NCBI GenBank assembly: GCA_964648665.1
Contig: CAZYOA010000001.1
Location: forward strand, 112,128 to 176,127
DNA: 64,000 bases
Reading direction: 5' to 3'
Source of the DNA: an uncultured Planctomycetales bacterium
GTDB taxonomy: Bacteria; Omnitrophota; Gorgyraeia; Zapsychrales; Aceulaceae
Shown here: positions 10,411 through 50,944 of the stretch, in pieces
Layout: every line of letters begins with the position of its first letter
Numbering within the stretch: the first letter of the stretch is position 1
Program-made: the position numbers and the translations under genes
The notes under the pieces: model-generated
The model's database searches: none
Told to the model about the DNA's origin: nothing
Seen by the model: only the letters and a program-made list of their open reading frames with translations

Positions 10411-11671
10411 AATAGTCATTGAGGGTGGAAGACGATTAAAAGGCGAAGTTAATGTTAGCGGGGCAAAAAATTCTGCTTTGCCAATTATGGCGGCAACGCT
10501 TTTGACAGATGATGCGTGTATTATTCGAAATGTACCAAAGTTACGTGATACAGAGACAATGGTAAAGCTTCTAGAATCTTTAGGGAAAAACGTTGATGTC
10601 AGGGGTAATATTGTTAAGGTTTCTTCTAGGGGGCCTTTAAAAGATACAGCGTCTTACGACCTTGTTTCAACAATGCGTGGTTCTTTTTGCGTCTTAGGGC
10701 CCTTGCTTGCAAAATTAAAACGTGCGAAAGTTTCTTTGCCGGGTGGATGTGTTATTGGCGTTAGACCTGTTGATCTGCATCTTAAGGGACTCAAAGCTTT
10801 AAATGCAAAGATTGAAGTTGAAAACGGATATGTTTTAGCAAGAACGACAAAGCTCAAAGGAGCTCGAATTTATTTAGGTGGAGTTTTTGGTTCTTCAGTT
10901 TTGGCAACGGCAAATATTTTAATGGCAGCTGTTTTGGCTGAAGGCGTTACAATCATCGAACCTGCAGCGTGCGAGCCAGAGATTGAAGATTTGGCTAATT
11001 TCTTGATTCAGATGGGAGCTAATATCCAAGGTCAGGGTACGCCAAGATTGACTGTTATTGGTGTTAAAAAACTTCACGGAACAGATCATCGTATTATCCC
11101 TGATCGCATTGAAGCAGGAACTTTCATTTTGATGGGAGTTGCAACAAAAAGCGATATTCTTGTACGTGGCGCTTGCCAAGATCACCTTTTGGCATTGATT
11201 GATACTCTAGAGAACGCTGGTGTAAAGTTTGAATTTACCGAAGATACAATTCGGGCAAAAGTGATAACAGACATTTTGCCAACAAGCATTACAACATATC
11301 CTTATCCCGGTTTTCCTACGGACTTGCAAGCGCAATTTATGGCATTGATGGCGCTAACTCCTGGTGTGAGCGTTATTACAGATAAGGTTTATCCAGATCG
11401 ATTTATTCATATTGCAGAACTTAATCGTATGGGCGCAAATATTAGACGAGAGGGAATGAATGGAATCATTCAAGGTGTAAAAACAATTTATGGTGCCCCT
11501 GTTATGGCGTCAGATCTAAGGGCTTCAGCTGCACTTGTTATTGCTGGTCTTGCGGCAAAAGGAACGACTGAGATCCAACGTGTTTATCATCTTGAAAGAG
11601 GATATGAAAATCTTGAAAAGAAATTAATTGCTCTTGGGGCAAAGATTTCAAGGAAGAAAAGTAAGATATGA
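10403..11671 (+). CDS. murA: UDP-N-acetylglucosamine 1-carboxyvinyltransferase
   Basis: 422 aa with the N-terminal [12 protein letters not shown] motif and the active-site Cys loop [15 protein letters not shown]. Confidence 0.95.
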
Positions 11672-12231
11672 TTTTAATGATCGATAATTATGATTCGTTT
11701 ACATATAATCTTGTTCAATATTTTGGTGAGCTTGGTGCAAATCTTGAGATTTTTCGAAATGATAAAATTACAATTTCAGAAATTAAGAAAAAGAAGCCAA
11801 GTCGTATTGTGATTTCTCCTGGACCAGGTCGACCAGAAAATGCTGGCATTTCAATTGAGTTGATTGAACAATTTTCTTCTAAAATTCCTATTTTAGGTGT
11901 GTGCTTAGGACATCAAGCTATTGGATCTGCATTTGGAGGGAAAATTATTCATGCCAAGAAATTAATGCATGGAAAAACATCTCTTATTTATCATAATGGC
12001 GAAGATATTTTTAAAGGTTTGACAGATCCATTTGAGGCAACGCGATACCATTCTCTAGTCATTGATCCAAAAAAATTACCTAAATGTTTAGAAGTTATAG
12101 CACAAACTCAGGATAAAGAAATTATGGGTATTCGTCATAAACAGTTTCCGCTTTGGGGTGTTCAGTTTCATCCAGAATCTATTTTAACTAAAGAGGGAAA
12201 ATCTCTTTTAAATAATTTTTTATCTCTTTAA
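11668..12231 (+). CDS. trpG: Anthranilate synthase component II / aminodeoxychorismate synthase glutamine amidotransferase
   Basis: Class-I GATase triad context (GVCLGHQ ... VQFHPES). 187 aa, directly followed by trpD. ATGA overlap with murA. Confidence 0.85.
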
Positions 12232-12238
12232 TCTACCG

Positions 12239-13249
12239 ATGAATCAATATATTCAAAAAATAAGAAATGGTGAAAATTTAAGCTCAGAGCTTATGCAATC
12301 TGCGATGAAGGAAATTATGTCCGGAGAAGCTTCTCCTGAGGATTTATCTTCGCTATTATTAGCGTTAAGAGAAAAGGGTCCTAGCGTTGAAGAAATTACT
12401 GGTGCGGCTTTAGCTATGCGCCAATTTTCAATTAAAGTTAATAGTGATCAGTATAAAAATATTTTAGATACGTGTGGAACCGGAGGTGACAAGCTTGGCA
12501 CGTTTAATATTTCAACAGTTTCAGCATTTGTTGTCGCTGGTGCTGGTGGGATTGTTGCAAAGCATGGGAATCGATCGGTTTCTAGTAAATGTGGAAGCGC
12601 TGATGTTTTAGAAGAGCTTGGCATAAATGTGCAGATGGATGTAAACCGTTTAAGTGATTGTCTTGATAAAGTTGGGATTGCTTTTTTATTTGCACAAAAA
12701 CTGCATCCGGCGATGAAATATGCGGCTCCTGTACGTAAAAATCTTGGTGTTGAAACAATCTTTAATATTTTAGGTCCACTTACAAATCCTGCGAATGCAA
12801 CACATCAAATGATGGGAATTTATGACGAAAACTTTGTTGAACCAATGGCTCATGTTTTAAAGAATCTTGGACTTAAAAAGGCACTTGTTGTTCACGGTAT
12901 TGATGGACTTGACGAAATTACAACAACAGCAAAAACGTTTGCAAGCGAATTTGATGGACATGAAGTTAAAAATTACATTATTTCTCCCGAGAAATATAAT
13001 ATTAAGTATGCGTCATTAGAGGATATCGTTGGAGGAGGTCTTAAGGTTAACGCTGAAATTGTAATGGCTATTTTAAATGGAGAAAAAGGATCAAGAAGAG
13101 ACATTGTTGTTTTAAATGCAGGTTATGCATTATATATTGCCGATATTGCAGAAAGTGTTGAAAAAGGTATTGAGATTGCTCGTCAGTCAATTGATTCAGG
13201 TAAAGCTTTGAGTAAGCTTAAACTTTTAAAAGAGTACACAAATCAATAA
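12239..13249 (+). CDS. trpD: Anthranilate phosphoribosyltransferase
   Basis: DTCGTGGDKLGTFNIST and KHGNRSVSSKCGSADVLE motifs. 336 aa. Confidence 0.9.
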   Translation: MNQYIQKIRNGENLSSELMQSAMKEIMSGEASPEDLSSLLLALREKGPSVEEITGAALAMRQFSIKVNSDQYKNILDTCGTGGDKLGTFNISTVSAFVVAGAGGIVAKHGNRSVSSKCGSADVLEELGINVQMDVNRLSDCLDKVGIAFLFAQKLHPAMKYAAPVRKNLGVETIFNILGPLTNPANATHQMMGIYDENFVEPMAHVLKNLGLKKALVVHGIDGLDEITTTAKTFASEFDGHEVKNYIISPEKYNIKYASLEDIVGGGLKVNAEIVMAILNGEKGSRRDIVVLNAGYALYIADIAESVEKGIEIARQSIDSGKALSKLKLLKEYTNQ

Positions 13250-14037
13250 TGAATGATTTTCTTAAAAAAATTCTATCTCATAAAAAAGGTTTAATTGAGA
13301 AAAAAAGAGCTTTCTATGACAATCTTAAAAATAAGCTTCAAGGGGGAGATCATTCGCGCTATTCACTCTTTAAGAGAATTATATCTCACCCAGGAGAAGT
13401 TAATTTAATCGCAGAAATTAAAAAAGCTTCTCCATCAAGAGGGCTTATTTGTAAAGAATTCAGCGTGCCAGGGCTGGCTCGAAAATATGTGAATAGCAAA
13501 GCGGTTGCTATATCAGTTGTGACGGAAGAAAAGTTTTTCCTCGGGAAACCTCCGTATGTTCGCGATGTTTCAGAATATTTTAAAGTTCCGGTTTTAGCTA
13601 AGGATTTTTTTGTTGATGAGGTGCAAGTTTATGAAGCATTCGCTCATGGCGCGAGTGCGATTCTTCTGATTGTAGCGATTTTAAGTGATGATGAAATAAA
13701 GAGTTTGAGTAAGATTGCAGAAGGTCTTGATATGGATTGTCTTGTTGAAGTTCACGACGATCAAGAGCTTGGTCGTGTTATTGATCTTGGGTGCAGTATT
13801 ATAGGAATTAATAACCGAAACCTTAAAACATTTGAAGTTGATTTCTCAACATGTGAAACTTTGATTCCAAAAATTCCAAAAGATCGAATTATCGTTGCTG
13901 AAAGTGGAATTAAAACGCATGATCAAATTGAAAAACTTAAAACCTTAGGTGCTCATGCGGTTTTGATTGGAGAAACATTTTTGCGATCAGGAAATGTTGA
14001 AGAAAAAATAAAAGAGGTTATGCATGGTTCGAATTAA
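13249..14037 (+). CDS. trpC: Indole-3-glycerol phosphate synthase
   Basis: IAEIKKASPS.G and IGINNRNL.TFEVD motifs. 262 aa. Confidence 0.9.
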   Translation: MNDFLKKILSHKKGLIEKKRAFYDNLKNKLQGGDHSRYSLFKRIISHPGEVNLIAEIKKASPSRGLICKEFSVPGLARKYVNSKAVAISVVTEEKFFLGKPPYVRDVSEYFKVPVLAKDFFVDEVQVYEAFAHGASAILLIVAILSDDEIKSLSKIAEGLDMDCLVEVHDDQELGRVIDLGCSIIGINNRNLKTFEVDFSTCETLIPKIPKDRIIVAESGIKTHDQIEKLKTLGAHAVLIGETFLRSGNVEEKIKEVMHGSN

Positions 14038-14635
14038 AGTCTGCGGATTAACAAATAAAAAAGATGCTTTAGCCGTTGTTAATTTAGATGTTTGGGCTGT
14101 TGGATTTATTTTTTATAAAAAGAGTTCACGATATGTTGAGCCTAAAGATGTCAAAAAGATTATTGATGCGTTGTCATCTAAGACGCTAACTGTTGGTGTC
14201 TTTGTTAATCAAGAAGAGCAAGAGATCAATGATATTGTTAAAACTTGCGGTCTAAAAGCTGTTCAGTTTCATGGTGATGAAACACCAAAAGAATGCATGA
14301 AAATTAAAGGTGTTAAAACGATAAAAGCTATTCGTGTTAAAAATAAAAAGGATATCTTAAAAGCTGCAAAATATAAAACAGATTATTTGCTTTTTGATAC
14401 GTTTAAAGAAAAAGTTTTTGGAGGAACCGGAAAAGTTTTTGATTGGAATTTACTAAAAGATAAATCTTTGAATAAAAGAAAAGTTATTCTTTCAGGTGGA
14501 TTAAATCCAAAAAATATTGTTGAGGCAGCATCTTCAGTTAAAGCTTATGCTTTTGATGTTTCAAGTGGTGTTGAGCGACGACCTGGAAAAAAATGTCATC
14601 GACTTCTTAAAACATTCTTTAAACAGATAGATTAG
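14024..14635 (+). CDS. trpF: Phosphoribosylanthranilate isomerase
   Basis: 203 aa. IKVCGLT N-terminus, VQFHGDE, and a C-terminal FDVSSGVE motif. Position after trpC. Confidence 0.8.
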   Translation: MVRIKVCGLTNKKDALAVVNLDVWAVGFIFYKKSSRYVEPKDVKKIIDALSSKTLTVGVFVNQEEQEINDIVKTCGLKAVQFHGDETPKECMKIKGVKTIKAIRVKNKKDILKAAKYKTDYLLFDTFKEKVFGGTGKVFDWNLLKDKSLNKRKVILSGGLNPKNIVEAASSVKAYAFDVSSGVERRPGKKCHRLLKTFFKQID

Positions 14636-14652
14636 TAAGAGGAGAGGGCAAT

Positions 14653-15321
14653 ATGAGCCGAATTGTTTTTGATATTGAAACGTTTGGGCAAGATTTTGAT
14701 TCTTTGGATGAGAAATCTCAAGAATATTTTCTGCGATTTGCTAAAACAGATCAAGACATTGAAGATGCCAAAAACAGTCTTTCATTTTATCCTGTGACTG
14801 CTCAAATTGTTACTATTGGTATGCTTGATGTTGATAGCAATAAAAGTTTTGTTTTTTACCAAAATGAGGGAGCTCCTGAGAAAATTCAAGAAGACAATGT
14901 TACGTATATTTCTGGAAACGAAAAAGAAATTTTAGAGCATTTCTGGCAGTTGATAGATAAGGCTAGCGTTTTTGTAACTTTTAATGGACGTGCTTTTGAC
15001 TGTCCATTTATCATGATTCGCTCAGCTGTTAATTCTGTAAAAGCAACTAAAAATCTAGTACCATATCGTTATGGGAAAGGGCCACATGTTGATCTTATGG
15101 ATCAGTTAACGTTTTATGATGCTATGCGAAGAAAGTTCAGCCTTGATATGTGGTGTAAAGCTTTTGGTATTAAAAGCCCTAAAGAAGAGGGTGTTACGGG
15201 TCTTCAGGTTAAAGATTTGTTCAAAGAAGGCAAACATATGGATATTGCACAATATTGCGCCAGAGATCTTTTAGCTACCAAAGAACTATATATATATTGG
15301 GATAAATATATAAAGAATTAA
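14653..15321 (+). CDS. DEDDy-type 3'-5' exonuclease, RNase H-like fold (PolB-exonuclease-like stand-alone protein)
   Basis: Exo I IVFDIETFG (DxE), Exo II FNGRAFDCPFI, Exo III YCARDLLAT (YxxxD). 222 aa. GAGGAG RBS 17 nt after the trpF stop. Confidence 0.65.
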   Translation: MSRIVFDIETFGQDFDSLDEKSQEYFLRFAKTDQDIEDAKNSLSFYPVTAQIVTIGMLDVDSNKSFVFYQNEGAPEKIQEDNVTYISGNEKEILEHFWQLIDKASVFVTFNGRAFDCPFIMIRSAVNSVKATKNLVPYRYGKGPHVDLMDQLTFYDAMRRKFSLDMWCKAFGIKSPKEEGVTGLQVKDLFKEGKHMDIAQYCARDLLATKELYIYWDKYIKN

Positions 15322-15334: not shown

Positions 15335-15362
15335 TTGTTATTTACTATTTATATGCTATATT
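15335..15362 (+). promoter_or_regulatory. Sigma-70-like promoter with extended -10 (TTGTTA-16 nt-TATATT, TGc upstream of -10)
   Basis: TTGTTA at 15335-15340. TGCTATATT at 15354-15362. The same TATGCTATATTT 12-mer recurs at two other promoter-like sites in the window. The structured RNA begins about 7 nt downstream. Confidence 0.45.
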
Positions 15363-15368: not shown

Positions 15369-15567
15369 GAGCCGATAAAGGTAAACCCGAGGAAACTCGG
15401 GGACACAAAACCGCAGGCCTAAGTTGTCTGAAACATTGCGCGTCCTTTGTCCAAGTGGCACAAGGATGATTCTGAACCGATTAGGTTGAAGTGGATGGCA
15501 AGATGGCGGCTGGGTTACCGAAGGCAGTTCAAGGTTGAGGGGCAAAAATCCCAAACTTTGTCGGCTC
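15369..15567 (+). promoter_or_regulatory. c-di-GMP-I (GEMM-I) riboswitch-like structured RNA with an enlarged receptor helix, closed by a 12-bp outer helix
   Basis: AAGGUAAACC-CGAG-GAAA-CUCG-GGGACACAAAACCGCAGGCCUAAG...GAUGGCGGCUGGGUUACCGAAGG parallels the Vc2 aptamer pattern GGCAAACC-stem-GAAA-stem-GGGACGCAAAGCC..GGCCUAAAC...GCGGGGUUACCGAUGG. There is a GAAA-capped 6-bp hairpin at 15386-15401. The tetraloop-receptor halves are CCUAAG (15418-15423) and GAUGG (15502-15506). The outer helix pairs 15369-15380 with 15556-15567. Called from memory of the family consensus, not from a covariance-model run. Confidence 0.6.
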
Positions 15568-15593
15568 TTTTCTTCTTCATCTTCGTTAATATT

Positions 15594-15622
15594 AGCCCTG
15601 ATAATTTCAGGGTCTTTTTTTT
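15594..15622 (+). terminator. Rho-independent terminator ending the structured RNA
   Basis: Stem CCCTGA (15596-15601) pairs with TCAGGG (15607-15612), 5-nt loop, then a run of 8 T (15615-15622). Confidence 0.75.
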
Positions 15623-15811
15623 GCTGGTTTTCAGCGCCAAATGTAGAAAAAGCAGCTAGAGAATCCCTTAGAGTGGGATTTAGAGGCAGGATTTCTGAAA
15701 TTTTTCACGTTATTTCGATAAAACCTTGATTTTATTATATATTTTTTTAGATTAGAGATTTAAGTTAATTATTTTAAATAGATTATATCTTATCGTTCTT
15801 AGGCTTTAGAC

Positions 15812-15839
15812 TTGAATTTTTAAAAAAGTATGCTATATT
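15812..15839 (+). promoter_or_regulatory. Sigma-70-like promoter with extended -10 in front of the first giant gene
   Basis: TTGAAT (15812-15817), 16-nt spacer ending TGc, TATATT (15834-15839). It would give a ~140-nt leader before the AAGGAG RBS and ATG 15983. Confidence 0.4.
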
Positions 15840-15982
15840 TTAATAACTATTTAGCAGTAAGTCATTTTTTATTGTTTTTATTCTTTTATTTAATTCCCGC
15901 CACGGAAAAATATTTGATCAATCTTCGTCTTTGAAGGCATGATTTGACGTTTTTCAACTTCTAAAACTACAAGGAGAGCCAA

Positions 15983-18900
15983 ATGTTCCAACGCTTTAAA
16001 AATCCTAAACAAAAATCTTTGTCCAACATTGTATCTATTTTTATTATCTTTTGTTTTTCGCTAAGCTCGGTTGCTCCTAGCTACGCCCAGAGTCTGTCTG
16101 TGCTTCCAGCTCCAGGCACGATGATCATGCAAACACCTGGATTTTCTCCAGTTCTTGTTCGAGCTTTGGAAATAAGCCCTGAAAATCCATTGCAATTTGG
16201 ATTTATTGTTGATAACGGGGATACTGGATTTGAAGGTGAGGAGCTGACGCAAGAGACGAAAAAATTAATTCGTTATTTTTTAGCTTCTTTAACAACGCCA
16301 GAAAAGGACATGTGGGTCAACCTTTCTCCGTATGAAGAAAATCGCATTATTGCTGATAATTTTGGCGAGACACAGATGGGTCGTGATCTTCTGGCACAAG
16401 ATTATATTTTAAAGCAACTTACGGCATCTTTGATTTATCCAGAAGATGAACTTGGAAAGAAATTTTGGGATAAAATTTATAAAACAGCTTATGAAAAGTT
16501 TGGAACGACAGATATTCCTTTAAATACGTTTAATAAAGTATGGATTGTGCCAAAGACAGCAGAAATTTATGAGCACGATAACAAGGTGTTTGTTATTAAT
16601 AGCGAGCTTGAGATTATGATGGAAGAGGATTATCTTTCCTTGGAAAAGAATCTTAATCGTGAAGATTTAGGCGCCAAGCAGACAAATAAAGCAGAAGCTA
16701 AGAGTGTAAGCGCGATTTCTTCCGAAATTGTTCGCGAGATTGTTATTCCAGCGATTACAAAAGAAGTTAATGAGGGAAAGAATTTTGCTAATCTTCGCCA
16801 GATTTATAATGCTATGATTTTAGCAACGTGGTACAAAAAAAATCTTAAAGAGAGTCTTTTGGGAAAAGTGTATGTGGATCAAAGTAAGAATAAGGGCATT
16901 GATTTAAAAGATAAGCAGGCTTCTCAAAAAGTCTATGACCAGTATATCGAAGCGTTCAAGAAAGGCGTGTATGATTATATAAAGGTAGAGAGCGATTCTA
17001 AAACTGGAAGAAATATTCCTCGTAAGTATTTTTCAGGTGGAGCTCTTGCTGTTTCTTCAATGAGGAATGTTATTCCTGATAGTAATGATTTAGCCCCAAA
17101 TGGAGATGTTGTTCAGAATTATAAATTTGAATTAGTTGAAAATGCGAATGAAGGTGAAGCGGGTCCGGCAGTTATATCTTCAAACATGATGATTCAGAAT
17201 ATACTTTCTCAAAAAACTTTAACAAGAGAGGGATTGCATACAGTTTTGTCTGCCATTATTAGTGAAGCCGAAAAAGATAAATCATTTGAAGAAAATGAAA
17301 GAAGGGATCTTGTTTTTATACGAGATGATGGCCAAAAGATTGGGCTAAAGTTTCTTTCTGAAATGGATATAAAGGTTGGGAAAGCTCTTTTGGGTGATGA
17401 AATGAGCGGAAAGTTTAAAGAAGTAATAGTTGAGTATAAAAATAATGGAACTTTCTTTCGACTTCTTATTGGTACCAAATCCCCGTTTCTTACAGACAGC
17501 TTTTGGGAAGTTGCTTCAGATAATGAAGGGCAAAACGAAGCGCTTAAAAAAGCTATTCAAAATGTTTTAGGGCTAAAAAAATCTGTAAGACATAAAATTA
17601 GAGTGTCTAGCAATCTTGTTTCACAGATAAACAAAAAGATTGGTACGCAACTTCCTGGATCTTTAACATCAGAAGATGCACAAAAAAAGGCATGTGAAAT
17701 ACTAGAGCGCTTTAGTCCTCACGCTGTAACTAAGACGGCTTTTGATATTAATGGAAATATGGAATTTGCACATTTTGAAGTTGTTGATGGTTTTTGGATA
17801 GCAGTAAGTGGTGGGGATTTTAGTAGTATGAGTTCAGGTGATGGCGTTCAGACAACAGCTTCGTCAACGCTTGCTTCTGTTAAGACAATCCAAGATATTG
17901 CGCCTCTAGCTATTGAATTACTTAAAAATAACACTACAGCTTTACATGTTAGTTTGTTAGATGATGGTCTGGTTTCAGCTGGATATCTTCCCTATAAGGA
18001 GTTTTTAAATAATGCGCCTGAAGATATGGAGGCTTTGCCTTTGGCAAGATATATACAGATTGATCTTAATTTTAACTCTATGTTTTATGATAGTTTGATT
18101 ACATTCCAGATTGATGATGAAGGGGGAGTTGTGATTCATGAAGTCTCTTCTCCTAAAGCGGAAAATCAAAAGACGATAAGAAAAATTTTCCAAGGAATTT
18201 TAGATGGTTATGTTGGAAATCTTCCAGAGATACAAGGAGACGGTTACACTGGAATATCTAGCTCAAACTTAAAGGTAAGAATAAATAAGCAAATTGAAGG
18301 AGATGAAAGTATTTCTCCTGATCTTTCACCTCGAGAAGCTCAACAAAAAGCCATGGAGAAGATTGAAGGGCTTCAAGCTGGCGCTCTTGGCGGCAATTTC
18401 TTTGATGCTTCTGACAAGCTTGGAGACTATCGCTTTTCTGTTATAGATGGTTTTTGGAAAGTTACAATTGTAAATGAAAAGCCAGCAAAAAATCAAATTA
18501 AAGCGTCTAACAATCTTAATGCAAATAATATTCAAAAGATATCTTCTCAAAAAACTATGAACTCTGCAGCAACAGAAGCCGAGAGGCTGGTTAAAGCGGC
18601 TCTAAATCCTAGAATTAAAAGTTTAAAAGATTTTCAGAAAGTTTCTTGGAGCAATGATCTCAGAGATAGCGGATGGACAGGTATTGATGACTACATGCAC
18701 GAAAGTTATGCACCTTGGAAAGTAAAACAGAGATTAGGGCAACTATCGATAGAAGAAAATGCCGTATTTATTGATACGGACAATAAGAAAATTATACAGG
18801 CTAAAGATATCCTTCCTTTGTTTGGAGAAGTTGATCATCCTGAAGTTTACCGAATCTTTTTTAAAGACGGATCTCGTATTTCTTTGTTAAGCAAAGGGTC

Positions 18901-21900
18901 CGGAGCCTCTGCTGGTGCTGGTCAGAAGAATTCTTTGGTAAGCACTCTTGGAACTGCTAAAGATATTCAAAGTAATATTAAAAAGCAGATTTTCTTTAAA
19001 AAGAATAGTCTGTCTAAAAAGGTAAAATTGGGTAAAACAGAAGTAGCTGATCCGAAATCTATTCAGACTAAACTTCTTGAAGCGCTGGGTAAAACGCAAA
19101 ACGACACTGAGGATAGTAATCTTGAAAGTGATTGGGTTTATATGTCATTAAAGAATGGTGATTTCGTTGAGATGAAAAAGTCTTCAAAATCTCCCGCTTG
19201 GAAAGTTAGGAAAGAAAATCTTTCTGAGACGGCACGAGAGCAGGTAATGGTTGATCAAGCTCAAAGTATTAAAAATATATTTGAAGATGAAAAGGCAGAA
19301 ATTAATGTGAAAGATGGTTTTGCATTCAATGGTTCTTTGGTGCAAATTTATTCTCCTGCTAACGAACTTACGCTTGTCGCTTATGCTTCGACAGTTAACA
19401 ATGAAGTTGATTCTGCATTTTTGCATAAAGGAAAAATAACTGAGGACATTCCTCTTATCAGAAAGAGTTTTACTCCTAAAAAGATAGAAGCTCCTGCTGT
19501 CGGACTTCCTCTTGGTCCTGAAAAGAAACCACTTGTTGGTGCTAATTTTATTGTTCCAGATATGCATATGACGTTATCTGCAATTCTAAATGCTGCACAA
19601 GTGCGCAAGGCAAGTTCAACATTATCTTTGAAATATCCAGGACCATTTAATGTTAGCAGTTTTGTCGCTCAATTAAAAGCTTCGCTTGAGTTTCCAACCT
19701 ATTTTCTTATTAAAGTTGGCAAGAAAGAATATACAGAAGGTGAACTTTTAAAAGAAGAGTTATCTTTGAAGACTGGTGAAATATTAGAATTAAGTTTTTC
19801 TGAGAATCGTTTTTCAGCTCGGCAGATTAATCTTTCAATACAGAAACAAGATGGTTCTGTATTAATTAGCGCTAAAGCGCTTGCGCAGGTTGGGGAACCT
19901 AGTTTTATTTCTTATCCTAAAATTAATCAACAGGTAGCTAGAATTCTTGATTTCGAAACAGCATTCGATTATCTGCAATCTTTAAAAGCAGTTAACCCTC
20001 CTAGTGGGAGGGCTATATATGATAGGCATGCCGAGGCTTCTAAGAAAGCAACTCAGAATAAGCAAACGAGTTCGAATCTTAATACTAAAAAGTATGAAAT
20101 TAAGGCTCTTAATCATGCGCAATTTCTTGAAATTAAAGAAAAAGCTAAAAAAGGTATTGATATCTTAGGGATTAAAGATTTTAAAAAGGCAACCTGGCTA
20201 GATCTTCTAAAGGCAGTATTTCTTAAAGTTAGCTTTGATGTCTCTGATCGTATATCAAGTAAATTTTATAATCTGAAAGCGCTAGCAGATGGTATATTTA
20301 ATTTTGAATTTTTAGAGAATGACAAAATTGTTGTTGAGGTAAGCGGGGCAAATGATCTTTCGCGAGAATATTCCTTAGGTATTCTTAAAAAAGAGCTTGG
20401 TCTTCAAGATGATCAGATTTTTCTTAAAAAGACATCGAGTTCAAATATGAAGTTGACGCAAAAGTTTATTAATACTTTTCGTCGTGAAGTTTCTGATATT
20501 GATGAGCTTCTCAATTTTAGACGTTTTAAAATCAGTTTATCTAAAGAGCAAGTTGATGGAATTAAAAAGGCTTTGGGTACAGAATCTTTAAAATCTATGG
20601 GAATGATTTCAAGCGGAAAAGATCGTCAGTTAAGCGATGATTTTAATCAACCTACAGGCGAGGATTCTTTTGTTGAGTTTTATGTTGAAACGTCTGATTC
20701 GAAATGGTCTGAGACTGTTATGAAAATAAAGTCTGAAGGTGCTTATCTACGCTTTATGGTTGAGCTTTTTAATAAAAATTCAGATTTAGCGAGAGAAGTT
20801 ATTAAAGATATGCTAAATCAGAAATCTGTTAAATATTTTGAGTTTATGGTTAATTTTATTAAACATTTAGAAAAAAGATTTCCCGATAATAAATTAATGT
20901 TACAGATGAATAGCGCCGAGAAGCTTGAGGGTAGCGCGGGCTTTATAAGCAATAGAAATAAATTTATAAATGGAATCGTTGAAAGAAGTACTATTGGAAT
21001 AAGTTTTGAGCTGAATGATGAAGAATTAATTACAGTTATGTCTGCGCAAGGAGAATACATAGTTACAGAGTATGGTTCTTGGCTTGAGAAGTACGGACTT
21101 CCTAACCTTGTTTACGGTTTGGTTGATTATAATGATGATATGAATCTTAAAAAGAAATCGACTTCAAGTAATATTAAAAAGGATACCAAAGAAATTGCTG
21201 GTGGTTCAAGGCTTGAGAGTACTTTTGATCCCGTAGCAGTAAAGACAACACATCAGTTTAAAAATGGTCTTCATGTCGATTGGACGTTTGAAGAAAAAGG
21301 AGATCACGCATATGATTCATCTGACCAGATTTTTGATAGCAGAGAGGCCGGGATGAAGAAAAGAAAGGGTAGCTCGGTGATGGTGAAGCAAGAGTTTTCT
21401 GTTTCTCGAGCAGGAAAACAAGGTATTTTAGACATGCGAAGTTCAATTAAAAAGAACCCTCGTACTATTGCAGGCAATATTGCAAAAGTCGCAAGGCTAA
21501 AGGATGTTGATCTTAGAGGTCTGGATGATAATTTGTATGGTGATGAATTAGGGTTTTCTTTTAATGGGGGGTCTTTAACAGTTAATTATAGCAAGAGTCT
21601 AGGTAATTCAGCAAAGATTACAGTTCAAGTTAATGAAGGGGAAGAATCAGAAGTCACTATTAATCGCATTTTTGCTGCAACCTGCGAAGTTCTTTCGCTT
21701 TATAAGAGGAGTGCCAGCTCGGCGATGGTGATTAAAATGTATAAAGCAAAAAATCGTGCTAGCAAATGGACTTCTATTGATGATGAAGATGTAAAAGAAG
21801 GAAAAGAAGTATGGTTTGCAGGGCAAATCATTGATAATACGGAGGCTGATGGAGGATGGGAGAGAATTGTTAATTTTAGAAATAAGAGTAGCCTTGTTAT

Positions 21901-23176
21901 TTACAGGGAAAGCGACGGCTTGCTAAGTTTTGTTATTAGTGCTGATAGCGATGATATCCATAAATCTATTTTAGAAGGAGTTATGGATGAGTTTGGCCTC
22001 TTGAAAGAAGAAATTGGTGAAACAGTTCCAAAGAAAGCGGGTTCGAATATTAGTACTATAATGTATCAAGTAAAAGAGCTTAATTCGGATCAGCTGGCTA
22101 TAGTTGTCAATGAGATTAAGGCTGGTTCTCTTTCATTTATTAATCCAAAAAGCCTCGTAATGAGTATTGCTGCGAGATTAAATTTAAAACCAGCCTCAAC
22201 TATAGGCAATAGTTTCGTGACTGACAAAATAATGGATGTAAAAATGAATTTTTGGGATTCAATCGCGGATGGACATCAGAAGGTTAAGATTGCGATCGTT
22301 GATGAAAAGGAATTGCTTATTACGGTTGAAGCTACGGATGATCAAAAGCACAAGCTTCTTTTAGATGCAGTTAAGTCTGAGCTTAGGCTTGATGATGATC
22401 AAATGGATTTAAAAAAGACAGCGAGTTCAGATATTGTGGGGTACAGAAAAGGGCCTGGGGAGGATCAAGGTAAGATTGTTAAGCCGATTGCTCCGGGATT
22501 GCCACAAGGACATCGGACAGTTAGTGGATACAGCAATAGAATTGTTAAGCCTGCGACACCAGGTTTGCCGCAAGAACATCGAACAGCTCTTAAGAAGAAA
22601 TCGAGCTCTCAAGCTATTGTTAAGCAAGTAAATGCGGGTATTGGTAATCAGCTTCGAGGAGAAGATTACACTTCAGAGGAAGCTATGAAATCGGCAGCTC
22701 GAATGTTAGGTTATGAACCTTTTGTTTTCAAAAATTATGGTTTTCAGATTAGGAAAGATGGGGTGTATGTATCTTTTGATCTTGATGAAGGTGTTTATAG
22801 GGCAGTACATGCTGCTACGATTACCGACCAACAGCTTAAGGAAATGGGAGATCCTGATCTAAGAAAAAGGAACGAGAAGGCTTCTTCTAATCTTGGTGGT
22901 ATTAGACTTGATTCTAAATATTTAGATCTTCAAATTAAGAGAGATGGAAAGGGCATTGCTCTTCCAGTTTCAAGCCAACCACTTGAAAGTTTCAATATTC
23001 AAGGGTTTTCATTCTATATCATGAGCATCACCGCTGTTCCAAGTTTACTTTTAATGTCTGGAATTTCGGATTCAGATAGCCGAGAGGCAAGCTTAGATTC
23101 AGAGTTTGATTTGCAGGCTAAGGCTGTAAATCGATTTATAGTAGGCGATTCACGAAGAATGAGCATTCTTGCATAA
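15983..23176 (+). CDS. Giant secreted modular protein 1 (2397 aa): signal peptide, conserved head, ~15 SS[NT][LIM]-delimited modules, conserved tail. Function unknown
   Basis: Uninterrupted 7.2-kb ORF with a strong RBS (AAGGAGAG). The signal peptide ends SYA/QS. Head residues ~37-355 are homologous to the 28872 ORF. It contains internal module families (see repeat features) and a C-terminal SSNLGGIRLDS... tail. Terminator follows at 23198. Confidence 0.9.
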   Translation: MFQRFKNPKQKSLSNIVSIFIIFCFSLSSVAPSYAQSLSVLPAPGTMIMQTPGFSPVLVRALEISPENPLQFGFIVDNGDTGFEGEELTQETKKLIRYFLASLTTPEKDMWVNLSPYEENRIIADNFGETQMGRDLLAQDYILKQLTASLIYPEDELGKKFWDKIYKTAYEKFGTTDIPLNTFNKVWIVPKTAEIYEHDNKVFVINSELEIMMEEDYLSLEKNLNREDLGAKQTNKAEAKSVSAISSEIVREIVIPAITKEVNEGKNFANLRQIYNAMILATWYKKNLKESLLGKVYVDQSKNKGIDLKDKQASQKVYDQYIEAFKKGVYDYIKVESDSKTGRNIPRKYFSGGALAVSSMRNVIPDSNDLAPNGDVVQNYKFELVENANEGEAGPAVISSNMMIQNILSQKTLTREGLHTVLSAIISEAEKDKSFEENERRDLVFIRDDGQKIGLKFLSEMDIKVGKALLGDEMSGKFKEVIVEYKNNGTFFRLLIGTKSPFLTDSFWEVASDNEGQNEALKKAIQNVLGLKKSVRHKIRVSSNLVSQINKKIGTQLPGSLTSEDAQKKACEILERFSPHAVTKTAFDINGNMEFAHFEVVDGFWIAVSGGDFSSMSSGDGVQTTASSTLASVKTIQDIAPLAIELLKNNTTALHVSLLDDGLVSAGYLPYKEFLNNAPEDMEALPLARYIQIDLNFNSMFYDSLITFQIDDEGGVVIHEVSSPKAENQKTIRKIFQGILDGYVGNLPEIQGDGYTGISSSNLKVRINKQIEGDESISPDLSPREAQQKAMEKIEGLQAGALGGNFFDASDKLGDYRFSVIDGFWKVTIVNEKPAKNQIKASNNLNANNIQKISSQKTMNSAATEAERLVKAALNPRIKSLKDFQKVSWSNDLRDSGWTGIDDYMHESYAPWKVKQRLGQLSIEENAVFIDTDNKKIIQAKDILPLFGEVDHPEVYRIFFKDGSRISLLSKGSGASAGAGQKNSLVSTLGTAKDIQSNIKKQIFFKKNSLSKKVKLGKTEVADPKSIQTKLLEALGKTQNDTEDSNLESDWVYMSLKNGDFVEMKKSSKSPAWKVRKENLSETAREQVMVDQAQSIKNIFEDEKAEINVKDGFAFNGSLVQIYSPANELTLVAYASTVNNEVDSAFLHKGKITEDIPLIRKSFTPKKIEAPAVGLPLGPEKKPLVGANFIVPDMHMTLSAILNAAQVRKASSTLSLKYPGPFNVSSFVAQLKASLEFPTYFLIKVGKKEYTEGELLKEELSLKTGEILELSFSENRFSARQINLSIQKQDGSVLISAKALAQVGEPSFISYPKINQQVARILDFETAFDYLQSLKAVNPPSGRAIYDRHAEASKKATQNKQTSSNLNTKKYEIKALNHAQFLEIKEKAKKGIDILGIKDFKKATWLDLLKAVFLKVSFDVSDRISSKFYNLKALADGIFNFEFLENDKIVVEVSGANDLSREYSLGILKKELGLQDDQIFLKKTSSSNMKLTQKFINTFRREVSDIDELLNFRRFKISLSKEQVDGIKKALGTESLKSMGMISSGKDRQLSDDFNQPTGEDSFVEFYVETSDSKWSETVMKIKSEGAYLRFMVELFNKNSDLAREVIKDMLNQKSVKYFEFMVNFIKHLEKRFPDNKLMLQMNSAEKLEGSAGFISNRNKFINGIVERSTIGISFELNDEELITVMSAQGEYIVTEYGSWLEKYGLPNLVYGLVDYNDDMNLKKKSTSSNIKKDTKEIAGGSRLESTFDPVAVKTTHQFKNGLHVDWTFEEKGDHAYDSSDQIFDSREAGMKKRKGSSVMVKQEFSVSRAGKQGILDMRSSIKKNPRTIAGNIAKVARLKDVDLRGLDDNLYGDELGFSFNGGSLTVNYSKSLGNSAKITVQVNEGEESEVTINRIFAATCEVLSLYKRSASSAMVIKMYKAKNRASKWTSIDDEDVKEGKEVWFAGQIIDNTEADGGWERIVNFRNKSSLVIYRESDGLLSFVISADSDDIHKSILEGVMDEFGLLKEEIGETVPKKAGSNISTIMYQVKELNSDQLAIVVNEIKAGSLSFINPKSLVMSIAARLNLKPASTIGNSFVTDKIMDVKMNFWDSIADGHQKVKIAIVDEKELLITVEATDDQKHKLLLDAVKSELRLDDDQMDLKKTASSDIVGYRKGPGEDQGKIVKPIAPGLPQGHRTVSGYSNRIVKPATPGLPQEHRTALKKKSSSQAIVKQVNAGIGNQLRGEDYTSEEAMKSAARMLGYEPFVFKNYGFQIRKDGVYVSFDLDEGVYRAVHAATITDQQLKEMGDPDLRKRNEKASSNLGGIRLDSKYLDLQIKRDGKGIALPVSSQPLESFNIQGFSFYIMSITAVPSLLLMSGISDSDSREASLDSEFDLQAKAVNRFIVGDSRRMSILA
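17603..17812 (+). repeat. Giant protein 1, module family A, copy 1 (protein-level repeat)
   Basis: VSSNLVSQINKKIGTQLPGSLTSEDAQKKACEILERF....FEVVDGFWIAV aligns with copies at 18254 and 22601 (SSN-x-INK.IG...S.E(E/D)A..KA....L.....F.V.DGFW.V). Confidence 0.7.
18254..18472 (+). repeat. Giant protein 1, module family A, copy 2
   Basis: ISSSNLKVRINKQIEGDESISPDLSPREAQQKAMEKIEGL....YRFSVIDGFWKVTIV. Confidence 0.7.
20069..20446 (+). repeat. Giant protein 1, module family B, copy 1
   Basis: SSNLNTKKYEIKALNHAQFLEIKEKAKKG ... KIVVEVSGANDLSREYSLGILKKELGLQDDQIFLKKTSSSN aligns end to end with the copy at 22037. Confidence 0.7.
22037..22432 (+). repeat. Giant protein 1, module family B, copy 2
   Basis: GSNISTIMYQVKELNSDQLAIVVNEIKAG ... 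ELLITVEATDDQKHKLLLDAVKSELRLDDDQMDLKKTASSD. Confidence 0.7.
22472..22585 (+). repeat. Two copies of a Pro-rich ~16-aa motif, 6 aa apart, inside giant protein 1
   Basis: KIVKPIAPGLPQGHRT (res 2164-2179) and RIVKPATPGLPQEHRT (res 2186-2201). The nucleotide copies are diverged at synonymous sites. Confidence 0.8.
22601..22807 (+). repeat. Giant protein 1, module family A, copy 3 (more diverged)
   Basis: SSSQAIVKQVNAGIGNQLRGEDYTSEEAMKSAARMLGY....VSFDLDEGVYRAV. Confidence 0.55.
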
Positions 23177-24751: not shown

Positions 24752-25452
24752 AAAAAATACTTTTTAGTATATTCTTAGTTATTGTTTTGTTTTCTCCAAG
24801 TTATGCTGATCAAAGTGATTTATATGATCAATTTATCGGCGAGAAGATTACTTACCGCATAAAAAGTTTGGGTGTTCATGCGGCGAATGCTGATCTTTCG
24901 TTTGAGGGAACAGCTAAAATTGATGGCCAAGATGTCTATCTTTTAACGTTTCATGCGAAGGGTGCGAATTTTTTAGATATAGAGAAAATTTATGTAAATA
25001 AGCAAGATTTCTATCCTGTGCGCGTTGAGCGTGATTTAAACATATTAGGTTCTAAGGAAAAGATTACAGAAAGTTATGATCAAGAAAATTTTGTTGTGAC
25101 GATTGAAAAGAAGGTTGAAGATAAAGAGAAGGCTGAAGAAAAAGTTATCAAAAAAACAGGTAAGATTGATAACATTTATTGTTTCATCTATCGGTTTCGT
25201 GCCGAAGAAGAATTTGAGATCGGAAAATCTTTTGAAATGAACTTGCCGACAAAAGATGTTTCGATTAAGATAGCAAAGAAGACAAAAGTTAAGGCTCTCA
25301 AAAAAGTTTATGAGGCATATTATTTTCAAACAGTTCCAAGGCAATATGAGGTTTGGTTTGATGTCTCAAGCGATAAAATTCCAATCCGAATCGATAAGCC
25401 TGCTATTATTGGTGGAACATCAATGGTGATGACAGAGTATAAAAAACAATGA
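24748..25452 (+). CDS. Secreted DUF3108-like protein
   Basis: Signal peptide [20 protein letters not shown], then [24 protein letters not shown]..., which resembles the DUF3108 N-terminal pattern as I recall it. ATGA overlaps on both sides (M20 and trpB). Confidence 0.45.
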
Positions 25453-26645
25453 AGAATATGAAGCGAAATAATCAACCTGACAGCCAGGGGCATTTTAATA
25501 ATCTTGGTGGACGTTTTGTGCCCGAGACATTAATGTCCTTAGTCGTAGATTTAGAAAAAGAATTTAAAACGCTTATAAAAGATAAAAAGTTTAAAGAAGA
25601 ATTTTCTTTTTATCTTAAGGAGTATGCGGGACGACCAACAAATTTATATTTTGCATCACGATTAAGCAAGCGGTTTAAAAATCTTAAAATATACTTGAAG
25701 CGTGAAGATCTTCTTCACACTGGTGCGCACAAGATTAATAATACGTTAGGGCAAATTTTAGTTGCGCGTCGTATGGGAAAGACTCGTATTATTGCAGAAA
25801 CTGGTGCAGGTCAGCATGGTGTTGCCACAGCGACGGCTGCAGCATTATTTGGCCTTAAGTGTGATGTGTATATGGGAGCTAAGGATATTAAGCGTCAGGC
25901 GCTTAATGTATTTCGCATGAAATTATTGGGTGCAAATGTGATTCCTGTTACGAGCGGAACGCAGACGCTAAAAGATGCTATGAACGAGGCGATTCGTGAT
26001 TGGGTAACGAATGTTGAAAATACATTTTATATTATTGGTTCTGTAGCTGGTCCACATCCGTATCCTGTGATGGTTCGAGAATTCCAGAAAATTATTGGAC
26101 TTGAAGCAAGAAAGCAATTTCTTGCAAAAGAAAAGAAATTACCTGATTACTTGGTTGCGTGCGTTGGTGGCGGATCAAACGCGATGGGACTTTTTTATCC
26201 TTTCTTAAATGATAAAAAAGTAAAAATGATTGGTGTTGAGGCCGCAGGATTGGGACTTAATACAGATAAACATTCAGCGGCTTTGATTAAAGGAAAAATT
26301 GGAGTCTTGCATGGAAGCAAAAGTAAACTTTTGCAGACAGAGGATGGACAAATCAGAGAAGTTCATTCAATAGCAGCTGGATTAGATTATCCAGGTGTTG
26401 GTCCTGAACATGCATATTTTAAGGAAATCGGAAGAGCCGAGTATGTTGGCATTGATGACAAGCAAGCGGTTAAAGGATTAAAGCTACTTTGCGAGACTGA
26501 AGGCATTATTCCTGCGCTGGAAACATCTCATGCAATTGGATATCTAGAAAAACTTTCTAAGAAAGTTAAAAAGAAATCAAGTGTGATTGTTTGTTTGTCT
26601 GGTCGTGGAGATAAAGATGTTTATGAGCTTAGGGAAATAATTTAA
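25449..26645 (+). CDS. trpB: Tryptophan synthase beta chain
   Basis: [13 protein letters not shown]-lysine context [11 protein letters not shown], and GGGSNAMG motif. 398 aa. Confidence 0.95.
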
Positions 26646-27442
26646 TGATAATTAATCGTGTTGATCAAAAGTTTAAGGACTTAAAGAAGCAAAAGAAAAA
26701 AGCTTTTATTGCGTTTGTAACAGCTGGAGATCCGGATTTAAAAACAACGGAAAATCTTGTTTATGCGCTTGAGCAAAGTGGAGCTGATATTATTGAGCTT
26801 GGTGTTCCGTTTTCAGACCCATTGGCTGATGGCCCAACGATTCAAGAAGCTTCTTATCGGGCACTTAAAAATAAAGTAACGATTCCAAAAATTCTTGATC
26901 TTGTTAAACGAATACGAAAAACGTCTCAAGTTCCGATTTGTCTGATGACGTATTATAATCCTGTGTTTTATTTTGGCGAAAAGAAGTTTGTTCAAGAAGC
27001 AAGTAAGGCTGGTGTTGATGGGGTGATCATTCCAGATCTTCCACCTGAAGAGGCTGAAGTGTTGATAGGGCAAGCAAGGAAGAATAACTTCTCAACAATT
27101 TTCTTTTTATCGCCGACGACAAAGAATGAGCGAATTAAAGTTATTGAAAAAGCGTCAAGCGGTTTCATCTATTATGTCTCTATTGCAGGTGTTACGGGTA
27201 TGCGTCAAGCGCTACCAAAGAATTTGAAAGAAAATCTTAAAATTATAAAGCGTATTGTCAAAAAACCTCTATGCGTAGGATTTGGTATTTCTAGTGCAAA
27301 TCAGGCGAAGGATATTTCAAAATATTGTGATGGGGTTATTGTTGGCAGTGCCATCATAAAACAGATTGTTAAAAATAAAGGTAAGGCAAATTTAATTTCA
27401 AACATAAAAAGATTCGTGAAAGGTCTATCTAAAAATGTATAA
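26645..27442 (+). CDS. trpA: Tryptophan synthase alpha chain
   Basis: ELGVPFSDPLADGPTIQ motif and GFGIS near the C-terminus. TAATG overlap with trpB. Confidence 0.9.
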   Translation: MIINRVDQKFKDLKKQKKKAFIAFVTAGDPDLKTTENLVYALEQSGADIIELGVPFSDPLADGPTIQEASYRALKNKVTIPKILDLVKRIRKTSQVPICLMTYYNPVFYFGEKKFVQEASKAGVDGVIIPDLPPEEAEVLIGQARKNNFSTIFFLSPTTKNERIKVIEKASSGFIYYVSIAGVTGMRQALPKNLKENLKIIKRIVKKPLCVGFGISSANQAKDISKYCDGVIVGSAIIKQIVKNKGKANLISNIKRFVKGLSKNV

Positions 27443-44447: not shown

Positions 44448-44831
44448 ATGTCTGGAAAAAAAATTGTTATTTTTGATGATGAAGTTGATATGCTGACTGT
44501 AACGGAAACGATTTTAAAAAGTCGTGGTTTTGAAGTTGCGACATTTGATTCATCTAAAAATGCGATTGAAGACATTAAAAGAGAAAAGCCAGATCTCATC
44601 CTCTTGGATATCAACATGCCTCATAAGGACGGCTATCAAGTCTGTGATGAGATTCGCTGTGATGATGAGATTAAGCATATCCCCGTTATTGTATTTACGG
44701 CTCAGCCGATTGAAAAAGATTTGATTGACAAGGCGCATCATTTTTATGGTGCTAATGATTATGTTATCAAACCTTTTGAGTCTGATGATTTAGTTGAGAA
44801 AATTGAAAAGAATATTTCTGAAAACGAGTGA
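44448..44831 (+). CDS. Single-domain response regulator (CheY-like receiver only)
   Basis: 127 aa. DD pair (IFDDEVD), phospho-acceptor context LILLDINMP, and conserved T and K (VFTA, IKPF). Confidence 0.85.
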   Translation: MSGKKIVIFDDEVDMLTVTETILKSRGFEVATFDSSKNAIEDIKREKPDLILLDINMPHKDGYQVCDEIRCDDEIKHIPVIVFTAQPIEKDLIDKAHHFYGANDYVIKPFESDDLVEKIEKNISENE

Positions 44832-45214
44832 TGGAGGAAGTAATGTACAAGATTTTAATTATTGAAGATGATGTGGATCTTGCAACAGTTTTGCAAATGA
44901 ACCTTGTATCTAAGGGGTTTGATGTTTTTGTTGCACACGACGCTATTCAGGGAACAGCGTCAGCACATCAGAAGAAACCAGATTTAATTATTCTAGATAT
45001 TAATTTGCCTGCAGGTGGTGGCTTGTCAATATTGAATAATGTTAAAGCATCTGTAAACACAAAAATGATCCCGATTATTATTTTATCAGGATCAGATGAT
45101 GAAAAGCTTATTCATGATGTTTTGCATGGGGGAGTTGAAGATTATATTAAAAAGCCATATGATCTTGAAGACCTGTGCACGCGTATTAACCATATTCTTC
45201 ATATCGAAAAATAG
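44828..45214 (+). CDS. Single-domain response regulator (receiver only)
   Basis: 128 aa. IIEDDVD, LIILDINLP, ILSG, and KKPY motifs. The start may be the Met at 44843. Confidence 0.85.
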   Translation: MMEEVMYKILIIEDDVDLATVLQMNLVSKGFDVFVAHDAIQGTASAHQKKPDLIILDINLPAGGGLSILNNVKASVNTKMIPIIILSGSDDEKLIHDVLHGGVEDYIKKPYDLEDLCTRINHILHIEK

Positions 45215-45225
45215 TTTCTAAATTT

Positions 45226-50805: not shown

Positions 50806-50830
50806 AAATAATTTTATTTTGTTATATGCG

Positions 50831-50908: not shown

Positions 50909-50944
50909 TGTAAAGATTTAACATATATCTTAAGGAGATACGCT

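Follow-up and report, generated by a model that had tools for sequence, protein, structure and literature searches.

A GEMM-I aptamer in a predicted self-contained transcription unit of Omnitrophota, with a long-range helix that competes with the ligand pocket

The intergenic region upstream of a giant gene, in a 64-kb stretch of DNA from the uncultivated phylum Omnitrophota (contig CAZYOA010000001.1, positions 112,128 to 176,127; hereafter the window), carries an RNA element that we identify as a GEMM-I (c-di-GMP-I) riboswitch aptamer, c-di-GMP being cyclic di-GMP. The element belongs to an Omnitrophota sub-family of GEMM-I RNAs that is organised as a self-contained transcription unit. We propose, with moderate confidence, that it is a genuine c-di-GMP aptamer in an autonomous unit in which transcription would stop at a first terminator (T1) without ligand and at a second one (T2) with ligand, the giant gene being transcribed mainly from a promoter of its own (promoter P2). 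The likely output of the unit is a short RNA, and control of the giant gene in cis is probably weak at most.

The identity of the aptamer is well supported. The whole window was scanned against Rfam 15 at gathering thresholds and a second time permissively, at E<=1. The sole match at gathering level was RF01051, c-di-GMP-I, at 15370-15522 (+), which covers the full length of the model (positions 1-87 of 87) with 68.2 bits against a gathering score of 35 and an E value of 3.1e-11. An initial annotation, made from the letters alone, had recognised a GEMM-I-like element here and had named this covariance model as a check, and both the score and the covariation described below uphold that identification. 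The permissive scan returned no further family in the aptamer region; 6S was unmatched, and c-di-GMP-II (RF01786), suggested as a control, had no match at E<=1 anywhere in the window. The motifs on which the early recognition had drawn are all in place, namely the GAAA-capped hairpin at 15386-15401 (CCCGAG/GAAA/CUCGGG), the receptor halves CCUAAG at 15418-15423 and GAUGG at 15502-15506, a duplicate GAUGGC at 15494-15499, and the conserved 3' sequence GGGUUACCGA.

Alignment to the model transfers the numbering of the Vc2 aptamer onto the window, with C13/G14 at 15373-15374, G20 at 15380, A47 at 15407 and C92 at 15518. Helix P2 (15381-15406, +) is closed by the pairs G21-C46 and U22-A45 and ends in the GAAA hairpin, whose tetraloop occupies 15392-15395 and of whose six pairs five are compensatory in the family. 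Helix P3 (15409-15516, +), placed by the Rfam alignment and by covariation in helices 4-6, contains the receptor, of the 11-nt type, into which the GNRA tetraloop would dock; tetraloop and receptor are kept across the family. The tip of P3 carries a lineage-specific insertion of 70 nt (15428-15497, +), an insert state of the Rfam model, which folds into a three-way junction with two hairpins, and the consensus fold of four orthologs has five compensatory pairs in hairpin b and three in hairpin c. P1a is short: two CG/CG pairs are possible (15373-15374 with 15519-15520), any extension beyond them is non-canonical, and the 5' nucleotides also pair with a distal strand that is considered below.

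Only three of 80 loci encoding the N-terminal domain of the giant gene carry a match to the GEMM-I clan, and these are the closest, syntenic ones (L001-L003). The three orthologs, from Candidatus (Ca.) Aceula lacicola, Ca. Aceula meridiana and another Omnitrophota metagenome-assembled genome, score 62.1, 63.5 and 61.7 bits, and their aptamers lie, as in the window, between an exonuclease gene and the giant gene. When the four intergenic regions are aligned, conservation extends over an upstream promoter (CTTGTTAT...TGCTATATT), the 5' strand GAGCCGAUAAAG, the aptamer, the distal strand CUUUGUCGGCUC with a pyrimidine tract, promoter P2 (CTTGAA...TGCTATATT) and a motif in the 5' untranslated region (5'-UTR) of the giant gene. 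Ten of the 52 pairs are compensatory among the four orthologs.

A wider family was collected by scanning metagenomes with a 16-mer of the 5' end, GCCGAUAAAGGYAAAC. The scan yielded 120 loci, mostly chance matches, about 20 of which have the GEMM-I core; P3 inserts of 55-75 nt, like that of the window, occur in ten metagenome relatives. The consensus fold of 17 family loci retains P2, P3 and the long-range helix, with 98.2% of cells paired (88.4% in shuffles) and 15 of 34 pairs changed on both sides, where 7.1 are expected, a count reached in none of 500 shuffles. Pairing falls to 28-47% once the partners are slid by one to three columns. The covariation in homologous loci thus supports the three-helix GEMM-I fold and not a 6S-like rod. 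Two departures from Vc2 that had been read as compensatory behave as such: the C-G pair at Vc2 22/45 is U-A in the window, L001 and L002 and C-G in the ortholog L003, and the G.U pair that becomes A-U at the base of P3 covaries in the family (GU 10, AU 5, GC 2).

Five further loci with the 16-mer, at first sight without an aptamer, turned out to encode GEMM-I RNAs enlarged by additional hairpins within P2 or behind it. These RNAs (L120 3807-4018, L130 4596-4839, L198, L129 and L132) lie upstream of GH1 genes and add one or two hairpin domains to the same frame of 5' and 3' helix strands. L120 and L130 have no Rfam match at gathering score, so that the curated model misses part of the lineage and expanded members of the family go undetected in Rfam.

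As G20, A47 and C92, the positions of ligand contact, are canonical in the window and in L001-L003, c-di-GMP is the expected ligand. The 3'3'-cyclic GMP-AMP (3'3'-cGAMP) riboswitch, GEMM-Ib, has A at position 20. The equivalent of Vc2 G20 is G at 15380 and in 17 of 17 family members, which bears out the earlier preference for c-di-GMP over 3'3'-cGAMP. In Vc2 the two guanines of the ligand are recognised separately, one by pairing with C92 and the other by contact with G20, and G14 and G94 are part of the P1a helix that forms upon ligand binding (PMC11705072).

The nucleotides that would build this pocket are the same ones that close a long-range helix. The 5' switching strand GAGCCGAUAAAG (15369-15380, +), delimited by the Rfam alignment, Vc2 numbering and its distal pairing, comprises C13/G14, A15-A19 and G20, and its complement, the distal switching strand CUUUGUCGGCUC (15556-15567, +), is invariant in the four orthologs and forms with it 12 uninterrupted pairs, one of them G.U, with a duplex energy of -18.2 kcal/mol. 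Between the aptamer and the distal strand lies a variable linker (15523-15555, +) with a small hairpin (GGGG 15539-15542, CCC 15550-15552), whose length in the family is 10-80 nt. The 12-bp helix had been described as enclosing the element; the helix is indeed present, yet it is not a simple enclosure, since it pairs G20, A15-A19 and the C13/G14 of P1a. Because it consumes all of these nucleotides it cannot coexist with the bound pocket: the long-range helix and the ligand pocket are mutually exclusive.

An uninterrupted long-range helix of 9-17 bp, in a register that always covers G20, is found in 17 of 17 family loci, and it covaries at its flanking pairs and at position 22, both of which lie outside the search pattern. 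An earlier statistic for the helix, based on the longest run with G.U allowed and a shuffled 5' strand, gave p of about 0.005-0.1 per locus; as it is too permissive in AT-rich sequence, an exact-complement test against control loci was used instead. A 9-nt complement 60-330 nt downstream is present at 15 of 21 aptamer loci compared with five of 95 chance 16-mer control loci (p 2e-10), and those five control loci are the expanded aptamers. By nearest-neighbour energies, which leave out tertiary contacts and the energy of the ligand, imposing the ligand-competent core carries a penalty of 11.9 kcal/mol for the window and of 10-25 kcal/mol for relatives, and the pair probability of the long-range helix drops from about 1.0 in the free ensemble to at most 0.12 in the ligand-competent one. 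The finished transcript should therefore adopt the closed form, and any effect of the ligand would be kinetic and exerted during transcription of the 70-nt insert and the linker.

The boundaries of the unit are set by predicted promoters and terminators. The initial annotation had pointed to promoter-like sites at 15335-15362 and 15812-15839, and a consensus scan found both of them, both TG-extended and both conserved in the four orthologous loci. Promoter P1 (15335-15362, +) consists of a -35 element TTGTTA at 15335-15340 and an extended -10 element TGCTATATT at 15354-15362, and CTTGTTAT and TGCTATATT are invariant in the four loci; similar extended -10 promoters stand 5-8 nt ahead of the RNA in the metagenome family. 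The predicted start of the RNA unit is about 15369, 7 nt past the -10 element, which is where the long-range helix begins. Promoter P2 of the giant gene (15812-15839, +) has TTGAAT as its -35 and again TGCTATATT as its extended -10, and CTTGAA and TGCTATATT are what the four loci conserve.

Directly after the helix follows the U-rich tract UUUUCUUCUU (15568-15577, +), which together with the helix makes up the proposed ligand-gated terminator T1. Of the first 8 nt after the helix, six or seven are U in each of the seven syntenic orthologs. As two of the loci, L003 and L096, have no terminator other than T1, the helix and its U-tract would appear able to terminate transcription, and T1 looks like a conditional terminator gated by the ligand. 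The strong intrinsic terminator noticed earlier was recovered by the consensus scan as T2 (15595-15622, +), a predicted stem-loop at 15595-15613 (-10.7 kcal/mol, 7-bp stem) followed by U8 at 15615-15622. In the window T1 and T2 are 27 nt apart, and T2 stands 10-35 nt past the distal helix strand in 12 of 17 family loci, the window included. In either ensemble, free or ligand-competent, its pairs form with probabilities of 0.87-1.0. An antiterminator for T2 was considered and rejected, as neither the distal strand nor the aptamer is complementary to the T2 arms and the ligand state makes no difference to the predicted T2 fold.

The position of the unit is conserved more widely than the gene that follows it. 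The RNA unit is syntenic in six related genomes, and the giant gene is missing from two of them: at L096 and L199, trpC and/or the exonuclease gene is followed by the RNA and then by orthologs of a 101-aa protein and an M20 peptidase that lie beyond the giant gene in the window. At L163 the RNA is followed by an ortholog of the giant gene whose N-terminal domain is 57% identical. In other family members the gene downstream encodes a GH1 glycosidase or a cyclic nucleotide monophosphate (cNMP)-binding/ParA-like/patatin protein, and at L178 a large open reading frame (ORF) lies on the opposite strand a few hundred nt downstream of the RNA. As the RNA unit is positionally conserved while the giant gene is not, the RNA is no dedicated leader of the giant gene. 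Nor is it a general 5' element of the giant-gene family, an idea that we discarded with just the three syntenic orthologs out of 80 loci having the RNA; no GEMM-I was found in L004-L017 by Rfam, no core motif in L004-L080 by motif scan, and the second giant gene of the window is without GEMM-I in the scan at E<=1.

Based on these data we propose the following sequence of events. Transcription would start at about 15369 from the conserved extended -10 promoter, and the aptamer, that is P2 and the P3 bearing the 70-nt three-way-junction insert, would be made first. Should transcription of the linker proceed without capture of c-di-GMP, the 12 nt at the 5' end would pair with 15556-15567, and the resulting 12-bp end-to-end helix with UUUUCUUCUU would act as the T1 stop, releasing a closed RNA of about 200 nt unable to bind ligand. 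Capture of c-di-GMP would instead lock G20, A47, C92 and the short P1a (C13-G94, G14-C93), block the long-range helix and let the polymerase pass T1, and 27 nt further on the ligand-independent T2 (15595-15622) would end transcription to give an RNA of about 250 nt. The giant gene would be expressed mainly from its own promoter at 15812-15839, and c-di-GMP could control it in cis only by leakage through T2.

Several observations weigh against this proposal. A terminator with a multi-branched domain of 175 nt as its loop is unusual, and three relatives upstream of GH1 genes (L111, L155 and L132) have the helix without a good U-tract; as the helix is kept without such a tract in several relatives, it must have a role beyond termination at T1. 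The invariance of the 5' helix strand is in part a consequence of how the search pattern was built, and since that pattern fixed the 5' strand, the compensatory evidence for the core is limited to the flanks, to position 22 and to the U.G/U-A alternation. The folding energies omit, as said, the tertiary contacts and the ligand. No dedicated anti-terminator partner for the freed distal strand was found, the linker segments being no better than shuffled ones in most loci, and a linker mimic of the 5' strand, a candidate anti-terminator, was seen in the window (CAAGGUU/AACUUUG) and in L101. The promoters and terminators are consensus predictions, although conserved, and a same-strand gene lies downstream of the RNA unit in 16 of 17 loci, which is also compatible with true cis regulation.

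That last arrangement would suit a classical ON riboswitch, in which c-di-GMP blocks the T1 helix and enough polymerase passes T2 to raise production of the giant protein. We regard this as rather unlikely, although at five loci the orthologous giant gene follows directly on the RNA unit, in the same orientation and at a short distance, and L003 has T1 alone between RNA and gene. GEMM-I riboswitches commonly control surface or secreted proteins, which would suit such a role. Giant genes of Omnitrophota have in addition been tied to c-di-GMP by neighbouring pilZ genes and by GGDEF domains inside the giant genes (bioRxiv 10.1101/2023.11.21.568195), a published link that speaks for cis control and makes a c-di-GMP theme for the giant gene plausible. 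Against it stand T2, which is strong (7-bp stem, U8) and folds alike in both ligand states, and the conserved promoter P2 between T2 and the gene, and it is this combination of a constitutive T2 with a conserved promoter that renders an effect on the downstream gene doubtful. The RNA unit is moreover kept at the same syntenic site in L096 and L199 without a giant gene, Rfam and motif scans found no GEMM-I at 76 other loci of the giant-gene family, and in the Bc1 riboswitch, which has the same layout, the downstream genes are unresponsive (PMC11218506). The link drawn at the outset between c-di-GMP and control of a giant secreted protein is accordingly weak. The choice then left between a riboswitch feeding read-through into the giant gene and a free-standing RNA turns towards the latter, an insulated unit fitting better than strong control by read-through.

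Another possibility, a stand-alone c-di-GMP-binding small RNA (sRNA) whose helix would mainly shield the termini or reset the molecule, with termination at T1 of no consequence, we consider improbable. Such an RNA could serve as a second-messenger buffer, act in trans or have its stability gated by ligand. Several features of the unit agree with it: a promoter of its own, a helix that starts at the predicted +1, a terminator of its own and a separate promoter for the next gene, the -35 of which lies at GH1 loci inside the 3' arm of T2; a position that is conserved whatever gene comes next; and a helix retained in relatives that lack the U-tract. There are also precedents in merRNA (PMC3627812) and in the Vc2-terminated sRNAs, which c-di-GMP stabilises (bioRxiv 10.1101/617340). 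Once finished and closed, however, the RNA is ligand-incompetent by a predicted 10-25 kcal/mol and would make a poor sponge unless ligand were trapped during transcription. A same-strand gene comes next in 16 of 17 loci, and no trans target was found, the sole loop-loop candidate, the 5'-UTR motif of the giant gene, not being conserved in L163.

More tentatively, and with low confidence, it can be suggested that Omnitrophota carry a family of autonomously transcribed, c-di-GMP-gated RNAs in which the RNA itself is the output, in parallel to the merRNA of Bdellovibrio. Capture of ligand during transcription would then choose between a closed, short, ligand-free form and an open, longer, ligand-loaded form; the open form would expose its 5' and 3' strands, and the RNA might work as a messenger buffer or as a regulator that acts in trans or is controlled through its stability.

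It is very improbable that the aptamer senses another ligand, be it 3'3'-cGAMP or the ligand of the GGC/UAU variants, or that it is a degenerate RNA that binds none. The suspicion arises as L003 and several relatives score best against RF03167 (c-di-GMP-I-GGC), and as the large P3 insert, together with P2 inserts in some relatives, is atypical. The RF03167 consensus GACGCGAA has G at the A47 position, whereas the window and L001-L003 have A, and A is found there throughout, which rules out L003 and its relatives as true c-di-GMP-I-GGC variants; RF03167 wins for L003 because that model includes helix P1 and omits the receptor, and its top score is a scoring artefact. Position 20 is G and not the A of GEMM-Ib, C92 is C, covariation and purifying selection are seen in the core, the tetraloop and the receptor, and genes for GGDEF and HD-GYP proteins are encoded in the window. 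That the likeness is accidental, or that the RNA folds otherwise, for instance as a 6S-like rod, may be argued from a z-score of just -1.6 for the minimum free energy of the whole region and from termini that pair in the manner of a rod; this reading is effectively already refuted by the E value of 3e-11 against a curated model, by the collapse of covariation with partners slid by one to three columns, and by the absence of 6S or any other family at E<=1.

The aptamer in an autonomous unit, which we favour, leaves the giant gene as a neighbour with features of its own. Giant gene 1 (15983-23176, +) encodes 2397 aa, with a signal-peptide-like N-terminus and an Omnitrophota-specific N-terminal domain of about 360 aa. 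No Pfam family was found in the protein, and an AlphaFold model of the N-terminal domain (predicted local distance difference test, pLDDT, of 70) had no significant fold match in the PDB, the best E being 0.11. The N-terminal 360 aa have 1,407 relatives, the named ones nearly all from metagenome-assembled genomes of Candidatus Omnitrophota, and 443 loci of this domain family were confirmed in species-representative genomes, with several copies per genome. Giant gene 2 (28872-36311, +; 2479 aa) shares with the first only the N-terminal ~360 aa (56% identity) and the C-terminal ~90 aa. The pattern SS[NS][LIM] occurs in giant protein 1 seven times (at 399, 542, 760, 1363, 1486, 1728 and 2301; 0.6 expected and at most 4 in 1000 shuffles), usually after a basic stretch as if marking module boundaries, and in giant protein 2 once, near the C-terminus, in the SSN[IL]GGI region common to both proteins.

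Downstream of promoter P2 the 5'-UTR of giant gene 1 contains a hairpin motif, UUCC-CGCCAC-GGAA(A), at 15894-15908 (+), with the pattern CYGCCACGGWAA at 15897-15908. The same pattern occurs in L001 (3905-3916), L002 (3799-3810), L003 (3878-3889) and L163 (3234-3245), and the motif is confined to the five loci in which the RNA unit lies ahead of an orthologous giant gene, with no chance matches expected in the window. A loop-loop pairing of AGUGGC in the aptamer insert with GCCAC of this motif is complementary in the window and in L001-L003; it is absent in L163 and was set aside. So was an ORF of 70 aa at 15447-15659 that overlaps the RNA, as its apparent conservation mirrors the conserved 3' half of the aptamer only; it is not treated as a gene.

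Among the relatives, the stretch between the RNA unit and the next gene has its own particularities. In L101, L111, L141, L191, L100, L120 and L130 the terminator's 3' arm (UUGGGA) is at the same time the -35 element of a promoter (TTGGGA), which has a spacing of 17 nt and the extended -10 TGTTATAAT and serves the downstream GH1 or patatin gene; this overlap lies about 10-60 nt after the RNA unit and is conserved among those loci. In L096 (~3225-3252) the gene of 100 aa after the RNA unit starts a few nt past a TGTTATAAT -10 element, which suggests a leaderless or near-leaderless mRNA. Repeated hairpins, or elements resembling miniature inverted-repeat transposable elements, lie between the RNA unit and the downstream gene in L002 (~3880-3990), L003 (~3660-3700), L101 (~2555-2660), L155, L164 and L199; GGAGCGNAAGCGA is an example of their loops and GGATAAATTCGC...AAATAACTTATGTCGC of the strings that they share.

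The window has a GC content of 35% and all of its genes on one strand. The nearest genomic loci are those of Ca. Aceula lacicola (77% identity) and Ca. Aceula meridiana (67%), and by this similarity the window is assigned to an Omnitrophota genome near Ca. Aceula. Its gene order runs from trpG-D-C-F through a PolB-like 3'-5' exonuclease, the RNA, giant gene 1, the 101-aa protein, the M20 peptidase, a DUF3108 protein, trpB-trpA, an M16 peptidase and giant gene 2 to housekeeping genes. The trp genes are thus split (11668-15321 and 25449-27442), with trpG/D/C/F upstream and trpB/trpA downstream of the block from the exonuclease to the DUF3108 gene. A PAS-like diguanylate cyclase with an intact GGDEF motif and an RxxD I-site (56367-57368) and a GAF-HD-GYP protein (50897-52387) are encoded in the window, and from these two genes we conclude that the organism makes c-di-GMP and probably degrades it. 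Other signalling genes, at 44448-47112, encode two single-domain response regulators and a dCache-HAMP histidine kinase. Two sub-threshold Rfam matches, RF03531 at 42988-43062 within a UvrD/AddA-like helicase gene (40 bits against 65) and the L20 leader at 50785-50863 (28 bits against 59), are probably resemblances of coding sequence or of chance.

Our literature search found no report of a riboswitch for Omnitrophota. The element would place the sensing of c-di-GMP by RNA in this phylum, although the aptamer class itself is well known and its presence unsurprising. The element shares with Vc2 and RF01051 a full-length match at nearly twice the gathering score, the GAAA tetraloop of P2, the CCUAAG/(U/G)AUGG receptor of P3, G20, A47 and C92, and the CG/CG pairs of P1a are possible in it. 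It differs in the 70-nt three-way-junction insert at the tip of P3, in a P1a of 2 bp that competes with a 12-bp helix pairing G20, and in its host from an uncultivated phylum. The useful part is the architecture, in which the 12 nt at the 5' end would either become part of the pocket or form a terminator-like helix, followed by a constitutive terminator and a separate promoter. Direct competition between terminator and aptamer is also the logic of the pbuE (ydhL) adenine ON riboswitch, whose terminator stem uses aptamer nucleotides without a separate anti-terminator and under kinetic control; there the terminator invades the 3' half of the aptamer, whereas here it pairs the 5' strand across the whole aptamer.

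In V. cholerae the ligand state of a GEMM-I aptamer likewise sets the fate of non-coding RNAs, the Vc2-terminated sRNAs, in which the aptamer is at the 3' end and its bound form is protected from degradation (bioRxiv 10.1101/617340); in contrast, the aptamer here comes first in the transcript, and the prediction is that ligand opens the terminal helix. A closer parallel in use is the merRNA of Bdellovibrio bacteriovorus, a transcript of 445 nt with extreme measured abundance and no conserved downstream ORF (PMC3627812). Like merRNA, the unit described here is, by prediction and conservation, a GEMM-I aptamer within a separate non-coding RNA that has a promoter of its own and belongs to a predatory or host-dependent bacterium, Omnitrophota being putative predatory or host-dependent nanobacteria, and a role as an RNA product rather than as a leader is plausible. 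Unlike merRNA, its closed form is predicted not to bind ligand, and a same-strand gene of varying identity (giant gene, 101-aa protein, GH1 or cNMP-patatin) comes next in 16 of 17 loci.

The closest functional counterpart, by analogy, appears to be Bc1, a GEMM-I riboswitch of Bacillus thuringiensis in the Bacillus cereus group, in which T1 unfolds with c-di-GMP while a constitutive T2, 28 bp downstream, masks T1 and the downstream genes show no response (PMC11218506). Both systems have a GEMM-I aptamer followed by two terminators about 27-28 nt apart, of which the first is sensitive to c-di-GMP and the second constitutive, here by computation. The two terminators of Bc1 are described as typical rho-independent ones (PMC11218506), whereas T1 here is a long-range helix from the 5' end of the transcript to the distal strand around the whole aptamer; a conserved promoter follows T2 here, and the sequence relationship of the two systems is confined to the aptamer. 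The unit would thus function most like Bc1 and may be used like merRNA, which would make it a second, phylogenetically distant case of the puzzling Bc1 layout and a candidate functional relative of the Bdellovibrio RNA. Such a layout could help to explain riboswitches that seem not to regulate their downstream gene.

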